From contig JALVXV010000116.1 in the NCBI GenBank assembly GCA_027038235.1, positions 1-46,689 of the forward strand: a stretch of 46,689 nucleotides of DNA, given 5' to 3'. This DNA comes from Campylobacterales bacterium. Its GTDB lineage: Bacteria; Campylobacterota; Campylobacteria; Campylobacterales; JALSKU01. Below the pieces are notes generated by a model. The model made no database searches and was not told the DNA's origin. It saw only the letters and a list, made by a program, of their open reading frames with translations. The translations under genes were made by a program, and so were the position numbers. Positions 12,101 through 27,773 of this stretch are shown here, piece by piece (position 1 is the first letter of the stretch; each line of letters starts with the position of its first letter).

Positions 12101-12603
12101 CTTAACCTCCTTATACTTTTTTTGCCTATCTTGATAATTGATGACGCACTATCTGCTCTAAACTCATCTGCTTCAAAGAGTATTATATCAACTCTATCTT
12201 TAATGTAACCAAAATCAAACTCACACCCTGTCTTATTGGCTGAAGTTGAATACATCCATCCAAATCGCTTTAAAAAGCTTTGATGGGGAGCATCTTGAAC
12301 TACCCTAATAGCTTTTAGATTTGGATATATAAAAGTTGTCTTTTTTTTTCTTCTTAAAAATTTTTTAAATCTTTTAGGAACTCTTGTCTCTTTTTTCAAC
12401 TCACAAAATGTAGCTATGCTCTTTAAAAAGGGCTGCTTTATATCTCTTTGCTTGATAAGAGACAATTTTTTTTTCTCTTTTGAAAGAAGACCCACAGTAG
12501 TATCAGTTTGGACAAGAAAAACGAGGTTTGTGATTCGTAATTCGTGATTCGTGATTGGTTGAAAGTCATCGATTTTTATTTCTTCAATTACCATTCTATT
12601 CAC
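12097..12603 (-). CDS. YrdC/Sua5-family protein (threonylcarbamoyl-AMP synthase-like)
   Basis: The QTDTTVGLLS signature is present. The N-terminal 25-28 codons (..PITNHELRITN) are encoded by a heptamer array. Only GTG 12603 or ATG 12594 can serve as a start. Confidence 0.7.
   Translation of the reverse strand: MNRMVIEEIKIDDFQPITNHELRITNLVFLVQTDTTVGLLSKEKKKLSLIKQRDIKQPFLKSIATFCELKKETRVPKRFKKFLRRKKKTTFIYPNLKAIRVVQDAPHQSFLKRFGWMYSTSANKTGCEFDFGYIKDRVDIILFEADEFRADSASSIIKIGKKSIRRLR
12530..12558. repeat. class C heptamer array (GTGATTC GTAATTC GTGATTC GTGATTG G) lying inside the 5' end of the YrdC-like ORF
   Basis: Read directly from the sequence. It is inverted relative to 12604-12654. Confidence 0.95.
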
Positions 12604-12654
12604 TATTCACGAATCACTAATCACTAATCACTAATCACTAATTACGAATCACTA
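12604..12654. repeat. class C heptamer array, opposite orientation, 7 units (TATTCAC GAATCAC TAATCACx3 TAATTAC GAATCAC TA)
   Basis: Read directly from the sequence. The carB stop codon (12652-12654) lies inside the last unit. Confidence 0.95.
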
Positions 12655-15600
12655 CCCAAGATACTCTTGCAATGCTTTTGGATAAAATATATCACTCTCT
12701 TGCAACTCTTTTATAGCCTCTATAGCTACTTTAGCTGCAGCAATAGTGGTAAAATATGGAATATTCAATTTGATAACCTCTCTTCTTATATCTCTTGCAT
12801 CACTTTTGCTAGATTTGTTATCACTAGTATTTATCATAAGAGCTATTTCACTATTTTTCATCTTATCTTGTATATTTGGTCTTCCCTCACTTATCTTATA
12901 TACAAACTCTGCTTTTACTCCAGCATTTTTAAGAGTCTTATGTGTTCCACCCGTTGCAACTATCTTAAATCCAAGATCCTCAAATCCTTTGCCTATCTCT
13001 GCAGCAAACTCTTTATCTATATCACTCAATGAGATGAAAACTACACCCTTAGTAGGCAAGATATTGCCACTACTAAATTGACCTTTTGCAAATGATTTAG
13101 CAAAATTTTCACTAATTCCCATAACTTCACCAGTTGATTTCATCTCAGGCCCAAGTAGCAAATCTGCTCCAGTTAGCTTATTGAAAGGAAAGACTGCCTC
13201 TTTTACACTTATATGCTTTTTTATGTGGGGTTTATAGATACCATGCTCTTTATAAACAATATTATTTTTATCATAAAATTTTAAAGCACTTACCAAATCG
13301 CCCTCAAACATAACCTTTGTAGCAACCTTTGCTAAAGGTATTCCAGTAGCTTTACTTACAAATGGTACAGTTCTGCTTGCTCTTGGATTTACCTCTATGA
13401 TATAAACCTCATTTTTATATACAGCAAACTGGATATTTAAAAGTCCGACAACTCCAAGTCCTAAAGCTATATCTTTTGTCTGTTTTTCAACCTTTAAAAG
13501 TATATCTTTGCCCAAACTAATAGGCGGTAATGAACAAGAGCTATCTCCACTATGAACTCCAGCCTCTTCGATATGTTGCATGATAGCACCAATATATACA
13601 TCTTTTTTATCACTTATTGCATCTACATCTATCTCAATAGCACGATCTAAAAACTTATCAAGTAAAACAGGTGAATCATTACTAACACTTACTGCTTCAT
13701 TCATATATGTTTTTAATTCATCTTCAGAGTAAACTATCCTCATAGCTCTTCCACCAAGTACATAGCTTGGTCTAACAAGTACAGGATAGCCTATCTCTTT
13801 AGCTTTTGATAGAGCCTCCTCTTTGGTAGTAGCTGTATCATTTTTGGGCTGCTTTAAGTTGTGCTTTTTAGCAAAATTTGAAAACTTCTCTCTATCTTCA
13901 GCTATATCTATCACTTTTGCACTTGTTCCTATGATATTTGCCCCAATAGATGTCAACTTTTTTGCAAGTTTCAAAGGTGTCTGCCCTCCAAAATGCACTA
14001 TTATGCCATCAGGGTTTTCTTTTTCAATAACTGCTCTTACTCTTTCAAAATCTATAGGCTCAAAGTAGAGTATATCACTTGTATCATAATCAGTCGAAAC
14101 TGTTTCAGGGTTGCAGTTATACATAATGGTAGTAACACCCATATCCTTTAGAGCAAATGCAGCATGAACACAACAATAATCAAACTCAATTCCTTGACCT
14201 ATTCTATTTGGGCCACCACCCAAAATCAAAACTCTCTTTCTAACATCACTGGTCGCTGGTCGCTGGTCGCTGGTCGCTATTATAGGGGTTGTTGAGTAAA
14301 GATATGGAGTTAGGGCTTTAAACTCTGCTGCACAAGTATCTACCTCATTATATATTTGTCCAATATCAAACTTTACTCTAGCATTTCTAATATCATTTTC
14401 TGTGATACCTATATTATCCCTTTTATTGATAAGTTTTGCTATCATAGCATCGCTAAAGCCATCACACTTTACTCTTCGTAAGAGTATCTTATTTTGTAAA
14501 ATATCTACATCTATCTCTTTTTCTATCCTTACAATCTCTTCTATTTGATACAAAAACCATCTATCTATCTTTGTAAGATTATATACTTCATCTATACTCA
14601 TACCCTCTCTAAAGGCTTGGGCGATATAAAGTACTCTATTTTCATTTGCTCTTCTTAACTCCTTTATTATCCTCTCTTTATCACCACTATCAATCTCTTC
14701 AAAGCCCTCAAGCCCTGTTTCTAAAGAGCATAGTGCCTTTTGGATAGACTCTTTAAAAGTTACCCCTATAGCCATAGCTTCACCAACACTCTTCATAGAA
14801 GTTCCAAGAGTTGAGTTAGCTTGTGGAAATTTCTCAAAGGTAAATCTTGGCATCTTTGTAACTATATAGTCGATAGTAGGTTCAAAACTAGCAGTTGTAC
14901 CTATGATGTCATTTTGTATCTCATCAAGAGTATATCCTACTGCTAAATAGGTTGCTACCTTTGCTATTGGATAGCCTGTTGCTTTACTAGCTAATGCTGA
15001 ACTTCTGCTTACTCTTGGGTTCATCTCTATGACAGTCATTCTACCATTTTTTGGATTGATAGCAAATTGGACATTACTACCTCCTGTATCAACCCCTATC
15101 TCTCGCAAAATTGCAAAAGAGGCATCTCTAATGGCTTGATACTCTTTATCTGTTAGAGTTAGAGCTGGTGCCACAGTGATACTATCGCCTGTATGTACAC
15201 CCATAGGATCAAAATTTTCAATAGAGCATACAATAATGCAGTTATCATTTCTATCTCTAATGACCTCCATCTCATACTCTTTCCAGCCTAAAAGTGATTC
15301 TTCAATTAAGATTTCACCAATAGGACTCTCCTCAAGAGCATGTTTTGCTAAAGATTTAAACTCATCAATATTGTATGCTACTCCACTTCCACCACCAGCA
15401 AGAGTGTATGAAGCTCTAATAATAAGAGGAAAACCTATCTCATTAGCAGCCTTTAATGCTTCATCCATATCATATGCATATCTACTTTTTGGCAAATCCA
15501 TACCAATTTTGATCATCGCCTCTTTAAAGGCTTGTCTATCCTCACCCTTTCTTATAGCCTCTGGATTTGCTCCTAAAAATTCAACACCCTCTAACATGCC

Positions 15601-15915
15601 CTTTTCATACATGCTCATTGCTACATTTAGTGCTGTTTGCCCTCCCATAGTAGGAAGTAAAGCATCTACATTTTCTATCTTTATAATATTTTGTATCACT
15701 TTTTCATTAATCGGCTCTATATAGGTTTTATCAGCAAATTCAGGATCAGTCATGATAGTAGCTGGATTTGAATTGATAAGCACAACCCTATACCCAAGCT
15801 CCTTTAAAGTCTTTGTAGCTTGAGTTCCGCTATAATCAAATTCGCATGATTGACCTATAACAATAGGACCTGAACCTATCAAAAGTATCGTTTTTATATC
15901 ATCTCTTTTTGGCAT
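12652..15915 (-). CDS. carB: carbamoyl-phosphate synthase large subunit
   Basis: The 1087-aa protein has two ATP-grasp halves ([17 protein letters not shown] and [15 protein letters not shown]) and an MGS-like C-terminal domain. Confidence 0.97.
14251..14278. repeat. intragenic GC-rich heptamer array (GGTCGCT)x4 inside carB
   Basis: Four perfect copies are present. In the carB sense they read (AGCGACC)n and encode [10 protein letters not shown], in the linker before the second ATP-grasp half. Confidence 0.95.
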
Positions 15916-15937: not shown

Positions 15938-16035
15938 AGCTTAGGGCTAAGAGTTAATGGCTTAGAGCTTATATAGCTTACACTTTTTATTGCAAGTTTT
16001 TAGCTCTTAGCTCTAAGCTCTTAGCTCTAAGCTTA
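15938..16035. repeat. class B inverted heptamer arrays (AAGCTTA GGGCTAA GAGTTAA TGGCTTA GAGCTTA ... loop ... TAGCTCT TAGCTCT AAGCTCT TAGCTCT AAGCTTA)
   Basis: Read directly from the sequence. The arrays fill the mreC-carB spacer, and the right arm ends 2 nt from the mreC stop. Confidence 0.95.
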
Positions 16036-27088: not shown

Positions 27089-27773
27089 AATAGAAGAGAT
27101 AGCAAGTAGAGTTGACTGGGATAAATCCCCTCTCATCCCTGCTATCGTTCAAGATGCTAAAACAAAGAAGGTTTTGATGTTAGCCTTTATGGATAGAGTT
27201 GCACTAAAGCTTACACTCTCTACTAAGATAGCCCACTACTTTAGCAGAAGTAAACAAAGAATCTGGAAAAAGGGTGAAACAAGCGGCAACATTCAAAAGG
27301 TAGAGGATATCTTTATAGATTGTGATAATGATACTATTTTGCTTTTAGTTGAACAAGTTGGAGGTGTGGCTTGTCATACTGGAAGGGAGAGTTGCTTTTT
27401 TACAAAACTTGAAAGTAGTGAAATTATCTCTAAGATAGATAGGAGTGCTACACAAAATTATAGTCTTATAGATAAATTATATCATACTATACAAGAGAGA
27501 AAAAGTAGCAGTCCTGATAAATCATATACTGCATCTTTGTATAAAAAGGGTGAAAATACAATACTTAAGAAGGTGATTGAAGAGTCTGGAGAGTTTTGTT
27601 TTGCTATAAAAGATAAAGATAGCAGTAGTATCATCTATGAAGCAGCTGATTTAACTTATCATGTGTTAGTTGCTCTAGCTTATAAAAATATTGACCCTGA
27701 GAGAGTTAAAAATGAGCTTAAAAGTAGATTTTCTCAAAGTGGCATAGAAGAGAAGAAGAGTAGAGCAAAGTAG
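27075..27773 (+). CDS. hisIE: bifunctional phosphoribosyl-AMP cyclohydrolase / phosphoribosyl-ATP diphosphatase
   Basis: The HisI part contains GETSGN...DCDNDTILLLVEQVGGVACHTGRESCFF. The HisE part contains SYTASLYKKG...AADLTYHVLVAL. The start is TTG. Confidence 0.9.
   Translation: MEIGKIEEIASRVDWDKSPLIPAIVQDAKTKKVLMLAFMDRVALKLTLSTKIAHYFSRSKQRIWKKGETSGNIQKVEDIFIDCDNDTILLLVEQVGGVACHTGRESCFFTKLESSEIISKIDRSATQNYSLIDKLYHTIQERKSSSPDKSYTASLYKKGENTILKKVIEESGEFCFAIKDKDSSSIIYEAADLTYHVLVALAYKNIDPERVKNELKSRFSQSGIEEKKSRAK

Follow-up and report, generated by a model that had tools for sequence, protein, structure and literature searches.

The window analysed here is the whole 46,689-nt contig JALVXV010000116.1 of the Campylobacterales bacterium assembly GCA_027038235.1, and the element in question is a short array of 7-nt repeats inside carB, the gene for the large subunit of carbamoyl-phosphate synthase. 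The genome (G000 below) is a metagenome-assembled genome (MAG) that is 81% complete and comprises 1.49 Mb in 317 contigs, with a GC content of 32.4%. The sequencing runs that hold the carB array are hydrothermal-vent metagenomes. Homologs of the carB product (CarB) place the genome in the Campylobacterota; among the matches listed in a scan for related loci, the named relatives were distant ones such as Sulfurimonas, Sulfuricurvum and Nautiliaceae, at about 70–72% identity. An intact carB gene occupies positions 12652–15915 on the minus strand and encodes 1087 aa. Its product carries the full CarB domain complement in Pfam (PF25596 twice, PF02786 twice, PF02787 and PF02142), and phmmer aligned it end to end with the Escherichia coli CarB structure 1BXR_A (E=0, residues 1–1061). 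By domain architecture and full-length similarity to the E. coli protein, we assign this open reading frame (ORF) to CarB.

On the plus strand the array reads cact, four copies of GGTCGCT and att, and all four units (14251–14278) are exact, as a first reading made from the letters alone (the sequence-only reading) had observed. Tandem Repeats Finder (TRF) reports it at 14249–14278 with a period of 7, 4.3 copies of CTGGTCG, 100% matches and a score of 60. On the coding strand, which is the minus strand, it reads (AGCGACC)x4 plus AG, begins with the last base of codon 546, continues to the end of codon 555 and specifies A547–T555 and the start of S556. A degenerate fifth unit, AGTGATG (14244–14250, minus strand), continues in phase and overlaps the AG tail of the array at 14249–14250; it differs from AGCGACC by two transitions and one transversion. 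The two-unit 14-mer occurs three times in the window, every time within the array, against 0.01 expected from dinucleotide-preserving shuffles. No second copy of the unit was found on either strand of the window, and the array is therefore solitary there, without an inverted partner.

The description of the unit as GC-rich and free of stops was accurate: five of its seven bases are G or C, and direct reading finds a stop triplet in none of its frames on either strand. The codons that the array supplies are rare in the genome, where GCG, CGA and GAC make up 3.5%, 2.7% and 9% of the codons for Ala, Arg and Asp, which suggests that the peptide is a by-product of the DNA repeat, and the units are identical at synonymous positions as well. 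Adding or removing one or two units in silico led to stops at aa 552–568, and only steps of three units preserved the frame, in agreement with the initial claim. With one unit more or two fewer, the first stop comes from the fifth unit (CAG TGA), while with one unit fewer or two more the shifted frame ends at a TGA that overlaps the in-frame TTG codon 563 (TTGA). The mRNA around the array showed no surplus folding compared with shuffles (z=+0.8), and no promoter-like or terminator-like sites overlapped the array. Read as GCTGGTCG, the unit agrees at seven of eight bases with the E. coli Chi site GCTGGTGG; the agreement is probably a coincidence.

The array lies in a hypervariable inter-domain tether (14233–14280, minus strand; the 16 CarB residues 546–561) that follows an invariant PYLYS..P-I block and joins the oligomerisation domain to the second ATP-grasp half. 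The placement of the array in this linker, proposed from the sequence alone, was borne out: its counterpart in the E. coli protein is residues ~547–558, around the domain boundary at Ala553/Asn554. In an alignment of 31 CarB sequences, the tether was hypervariable and its flanks were invariant, and across 30 carB loci of the order, PYLYS and VLI[LI]GGGPNRIG enclosed 14–20 hypervariable residues. Counted between P-I and VLILGGG, the tether has 16 residues both in G000 and in its closest species, G010 (91% CarB identity), where it reads SATGEQQPVINNCKKK, and 14–18 residues across the genus. The array had also been taken for an insertion of about 9 aa, a view that the ortholog alignment contradicts: the tether is equally long in G010, and from YST to the beta-strand (I/V)(M/L)(V/I)LGGG the net difference between G000 and E. 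coli is four residues. An AlphaFold2 (AF2) model computed from the 31-sequence alignment predicts coil for residues 543–560 at a predicted local distance difference test (pLDDT) score of 56–63, in a model with a mean pLDDT of 72 in which many conserved regions also score low.

In three related genomes, carB is split at the tether into two genes on different contigs: G014 (C61/C161) and G037 (C109/C17), which belong to one family, and G018 (C194/C90), which belongs to another. The N-terminal halves end in PYLYSTIML, PYLYSTVNITKLPSIN and PYLYSTIPPIKH, each followed by a stop, 3–10 residues past YLYS, and the C-terminal halves of G014 and G037 start with MKKVLIIGGG or MKKKVLIIGGG. Since carB is split there in three relatives, the tether between the two halves is dispensable across Campylobacterota. 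The site also appears to retain duplications in general, given that tether duplications of other periods are present in other genera, such as ELESEKVSELESEK in Nitrosophilus kaiyonis, HPSSIIHPPS in Sulfurovum lithotrophicum and PNLPNLP in Campylobacter vicugnae. The break between halves in Aquifex aeolicus CPS.A/CPS.B corresponds to the place of the carB array, as in the three Campylobacterota relatives, and the split proteins reconstitute an active enzyme (Ahuja et al. 2001, as cited in PMC6022934), which shows that activity does not require a covalent tether; the carB of G000 differs in being fused and intact. We also considered the tether as the fossil intergenic spacer of a once-split carB and rejected this, because a fused gene with a linker is the general state, both across the order and in E. 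coli, while the split genes are unlinked and confined to two to three derived families.

At least four congeners with 91–92% CarB identity likewise have a tether built from heptamers: two with ACCTTCA, one with a degenerate relative of it and one with decayed units in the AGCGACC phase. On the coding strand, the G000 tether consists of AGCGACC x4 and then AGTGATG, and that of G010 of AGCGACC GGTGAGC AACAACC GGTGATC AATAATT. The tether of G002 is a perfect ACCTTCA x4, that of GCA_054006935.1 (P0004) reads TCCTTCA ACCTTCA ACCATCA ACCATCA ACCTTCA, and that of G007 comprises seven degenerate units with the consensus TCAAMYY, in the same phase as in G002. When the lag-7 autocorrelation of the tether was scored against all windows of equal length within the same carB gene, a signal at p<=0.003 (nucleotide or purine/pyrimidine level) was obtained in 5 of 11 congeners, with weaker signals in two or three more; the 19 genomes of other families all fell short of that level. 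The repeat is thus not conserved as such at this locus: it is decayed in G010 and G007, has another unit in G002 and is absent in most congeners.

The G010 tether is in phase with the G000 array and keeps the pattern RRYRRYY in all of its five units but the second, which is RRYRRRY. It differs from (AGCGACC)x5 at 14 positions, 13 of them transitions, of which 11 are GC to AT. The four-fold sites of the G000/G010 carB pair have diverged by 43%, through 63 transitions and 96 transversions, and the contrast with the tether is significant (Fisher p=1e-4). The pattern fits a GC-rich tract that decays in one direction within an AT-rich genome. Given the four-fold divergence, the probability that 28 neutral bases stay unaltered in one lineage is ~1e-4, which argues that the perfect G000 array would have been renewed, either re-homogenised or recently rewritten, after the split from G010. 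Two in-frame steps suffice for this, namely the loss of three units and then the threefold duplication of the first one, and both intermediates remain in frame.

Heptamer arrays are abundant in G000. Perfect arrays of at least three copies numbered 71 for period 7 and 1–19 for each other period from 4 to 12. The TRF census (score >=40; ORFs >=90 aa) yielded 175 period-7 arrays, of which 10 (6%) were deep in ORFs, compared with 32 of 45 (71%) for period 9 and 83 of 105 (79%) for period 12. The carB array had been regarded as the only one in a coding region, which is not strictly so: ten arrays are deep in ORFs genome-wide, and the window itself has one at 12530–12556 in the 5' part of the neighbouring YrdC-like ORF. 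It is, nevertheless, the sole perfect array of at least four copies deep within a long ORF of the genome. The members of another family, AAAACTC, are also found in frame and encode peptides of the K-T-Q-N-S-K-L type, at C91:2472-2501, C305:2322-2354 and C310:346-371. Their hosts are three unrelated proteins (in this order GNAT-domain, UDP-glucose-dehydrogenase-like and TolC-like), and every time the units run in the one direction that contains no stop. AAAACTC itself (KTQNSKL) is at the N-terminus of a UDP-glucose/GDP-mannose-dehydrogenase-like protein, and AAAACTC-like units are in a TolC-like and a GNAT-domain protein. Pfam had no match for 131 aa taken from around the C91 array, and the scans were then made with full-length proteins.

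The unit was initially described as unlike the intergenic families. That description holds within the window and fails genome-wide, given that CTGGTC-type units occur in about nine elements located in 5' untranslated regions (5'-UTRs). Two perfect arrays, C238:1215-1245 (GCTGGTT x4.4) and C36:11588-11615 (TCTGGTC x4), and a mixed array at C276:3541-3568 are one base in seven away from the carB unit, and all three are directly 5' of GCTwAATCCAAAGGATT and a start codon. A genome scan for the wider hairpin class GCTwAATCCrAAGGATT, which admits G as well as A at one stem position, returned 53 matches, ~40 of them before start codons with heptamer arrays upstream; in ~9 of these 5'-UTR elements, CTGGTC- or CTAGTC-type units adjoin the hairpin. 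The proposed search for GGTCGCT arrays beyond carB thus recovered near matches, one base in seven off, in G000, and exact arrays in G013, a genome from another family of the order, which has an intergenic (AGCGACC)x6. Many GTTGGTC arrays were found in G013 and G038. The reversed-pattern control for GCTGGTC was uninformative, since reading this repeat backwards gives a rotation of the same repeat. The tether unit of G002, ACCTTCA, forms arrays at >=11 other loci of that genome and at three loci of G000, and the four loci sampled were intergenic. In both species checked, the tether unit therefore appears to belong to the array families of its own host genome, which speaks against arbitrary local seeds. 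At the G013 locus C1:1304723-1307743, an intergenic region has (AGCGACC)x6(AACGACC)x2 ~100 nt from a long (CAGTGAG)n array.

The carB array shares traits of the dispersed heptamer arrays: it is tandem with a 7-nt period in a genome with an excess of heptamers, its kin are found at several unlinked loci, and its class is mainly non-coding, with the carB copy among the exceptions. We consider it probable that the array belongs, from within a coding region, to the heptanucleotide families found throughout the gene boundaries in this genus of vent Campylobacterota, carried as a passenger in the CarB tether. The array would arise at the DNA level, with the peptide merely following from it. It would survive because its unit has no stop codon, because its 28 bases, taken with the sequence around them, preserve the reading frame and a normal length of the tether, and because the tether is dispensable. 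Turnover would be slow and in frame, through the loss or gain of three units or through copying from another array, and decay would proceed by point mutation, mostly GC to AT; no regulatory function would be involved. The mode of origin, the homogenisation and the absence of function are what we infer from the patterns above. The idea that the array is tolerated as a stop-free unit in a linker had been put forward before, and it is the best-supported reading, strengthened by the carB splits at the tether in three related genomes. The companion idea of a stable relic of the array-making process is only half right, in that the G010 ortholog has decayed in the same phase while the G000 copy is perfect.

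Several points weigh against the passenger interpretation. The data do not separate growth in place by slippage from copying in. Judged from TRF arrays alone, the evidence for family membership is modest (4 observed vs 1.1 expected, P=0.024). The perfect G000 array could be young and in phase with the G010 remnant only by coincidence. The AF2 model, with its mediocre mean pLDDT, is weak on the structure of the tether, for which the alignment and the split genes are the main evidence. Finally, rare variants are lost in assembled contigs, and length heterogeneity at low frequency could escape a comparison such as the one that follows.

Length variation was examined in assembled contigs and not in reads. 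All four strain-level CarB proteins (90% cluster) have 1087 aa and differ by point changes only, one having AASDG for ATSDV. Logan contigs of the vent runs X1, X3 and X5 span the array with 0 differences. Substitutions were found in X4 and X6–X8, at 14242/14243, 14251 and 14253, and in X4 only at 14240, and the contigs of X2 end at the array edge with a depth of 3–6. No inserted or deleted letters were present at the array in the contigs of the eight vent metagenomes. These results bear on the earlier suggestion of a contingency locus, in which changes of one or two units would toggle carB and hence arginine and pyrimidine prototrophy. The suggestion draws on a perfect array, inside an ORF, of a unit whose length is not a multiple of three, and on the truncation of CarB by steps of one or two units. 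It also has a precedent in Haemophilus influenzae, where heptanucleotide simple sequence repeats (SSRs) in ORFs drive phase variation, with known loci including the hmw1A/hmw2A promoters, a TonB-dependent receptor gene that contains AACAACC, and hmw1A itself, which has an AATTTTG tract within the gene (PMC2651432). There, too, a change by a single unit shifts the frame. The H. influenzae tracts, however, have 6–38 units, vary among strains and are in or before genes for surface proteins, whereas the carB array has four units, in a biosynthetic housekeeping gene. We regard a switch as very unlikely, because there are only four units, the contigs contain no length variants, point changes interrupt the array instead, and the sister species have unrelated or decayed units, so that the repeat has not been kept as a device.

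The remaining explanations differ in how the repeat would have come about. An origin by local slippage from a chance 7-mer seed, unrelated to the dispersed families and resembling them by coincidence, seems to us improbable, although several observations speak for it. Heptanucleotide repeats are described as the commonest long SSRs in many prokaryotes, with slippage of the polymerase as the ascribed cause (Mrazek et al. 2007, summarised in PMC4679880); a seed, AGCGACC, exists as the first unit of the G010 tether; the duplications of other periods in Nitrosophilus, Sulfurovum and Campylobacter point to the same kind of event; and the modest family match noted above leaves room for it. Against this, the tether units of two species each match arrays elsewhere (ACCTTCA at >=11 loci in G002, CTGGTYN in ~9 UTR elements in G000 and exact arrays in G013), and two such coincidences are unlikely if seeds are arbitrary. 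A slim chance is all that we would give to selection at the protein level for a flexible, hydrophilic tether rich in S/T/D/Q/P, with the DNA repeat incidental to a duplicated peptide motif. The peptide is indeed hydrophilic and coil-prone, in line with the low-confidence coil of the AF2 model, and the tether is held to 14–18 residues across the genus, but selection of this kind does not account for units that are identical even at synonymous sites and made of rare codons, for tether peptides that are unrelated in species with 91% identical CarB, or for split carB genes that need no tether. An artefact of assembly or sequencing, for which the fragmented MAG and the X2 contigs that break at the array edge could be cited, has a negligible probability, since the array is carried by four strain-level proteins that were assembled independently, and its identical form is present in independent NCBI and ENA assemblies and, with 0 differences, in the Logan contigs of X1, X3 and X5.

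Beyond the passenger interpretation, we can imagine that heptamer arrays do not grow from arbitrary seeds and are instead written as blocks, each specific to a family, through copying or through templated synthesis and possibly in connection with the PF05635 (S23p/Avd-like) cassettes that arrays bracket, and that the tether has acted as a near-neutral 'recorder' overwritten at least twice in one genus; we hold this to be doubtful. The AGCGACC family may have left its record in G000 and G010, and the ACCTTCA family in G002, GCA_054006935.1 and G007. Ranked below this, and less likely, is slippage that toggles CarB between a fused and a split form via the TTGA at codon 563, resembling the split genes of the relatives, in place of a plain loss of the enzyme. 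The TTG codon 563 and the ATT that follows (TTGATT on the coding strand; 14227–14232, minus strand) are relevant just to this speculative reading, where any significance would be conjectural.

The carB gene should not be annotated as phase-variable, and the array alone is probably a harmless occupant of a floppy tether. The interest of the locus is in the comparison. One alignable and nearly unconstrained site shows a perfect array, a homolog decayed by transitions and the arrays of a second family, in species 8–9% apart in protein. This makes it possible to test growth in place against copying, the rate of decay, and how arrays are re-homogenised when the frame has to be kept. Because different families recur at a single site that can be aligned, the locus could help settle how dispersed heptamer arrays originate.

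Dispersed heptamer arrays have been known for decades in cyanobacteria as short tandemly repeated repetitive (STRR) sequences. The arrays described here resemble STRR and the TAACTGA repeats of Beggiatoaceae (MacGregor 2015, PMC4679880) in their strict 7-nt period, their 2–10 or more copies, the few unit families per genome and their location, which is overwhelmingly at the borders of genes and frequently right before start codons, with an occasional overlap of ORFs where no stop arises. They differ in belonging to Campylobacterota and having other units, and in that a single site in a housekeeping gene carries different families and a decayed homolog in sister species; the comparative view of array turnover that the carB tether affords is not part of the STRR/TAACTGA descriptions. 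Long simple sequence repeats (LSSRs; 5–11 nt units), as far as the work of Mrazek, Guo & Shah (2007) is relayed in PMC4679880, are similar in that heptamers dominate, units that are not multiples of three are depleted in coding regions and slippage is proposed. Here, by contrast, unit families are common to many loci and to another family of the order, which pure local slippage does not predict.

Cassettes of the type found as intervening sequences (IVSs) in 23S rRNA, with S23p/IVP genes for four-helix bundles (PF05635), offer a further comparison. The two PF05635 genes of G000 (C305:2322-2739 and C133:6340-6645) are both bracketed by inverted heptamer arrays, with arms of GAGTTTT x4.7 and AACTCAA x2.6 on C305 and of AGAGCTT-type and AAGCTCT-type units on C133. 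The GAGTTTT arm on C305 doubles as codons 7–17 (NSKLKTQNSKL) of the adjoining UDP-glucose/GDP-mannose-dehydrogenase-like gene mentioned above. The carB array differs from such cassettes in having neither an inverted partner nor an adjoining PF05635 gene, and the PF05635 genes of G000 are on other contigs. In G013, an array of the GYTGGTC family is ~25 nt from a PF05635 gene. PF05635 was detected in five of the seven genomes with arrays in two pattern searches (G000, G002, G013, G023 and G038, but not G006 or G010) and in 14 of the 41 genomes of the whole set, which includes some incomplete MAGs. The co-occurrence of PF05635 with heptamer arrays is suggestive only.

Both ends of carB adjoin heptamer arrays in the window. 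The two stretches 12530–12556 and 12596–12654 have GTGATTC and CTAATCA arrays, which extend from the carB stop into the start region of the YrdC/Sua5-like gene, and TTAGCTC-type arrays at 15945–16033 are between MreC and the carB start. The carB flanks in G010, G002 and G008 likewise hold arrays, with partly different units.

The 5'-UTR elements that carry some of the closest matches to the carB unit are composites, present ~40 times in G000, in which heptamer arrays are followed by GCTwAATCCrAAGGATT, a spacer of 3–7 nt and ATG, GTG or TTG. Their arrays are mostly AGCTCTT or AGCTCTA and sometimes CTGGTYN. Examples are located at C36:11588-11640, C238:1215-1267 and C276:3515-3568, and in the window at ~27600–27650 (minus strand). 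The AATCC/GGATT stem of the element overlaps an AAGGA Shine-Dalgarno-like motif, and it could thereby gate translation initiation.

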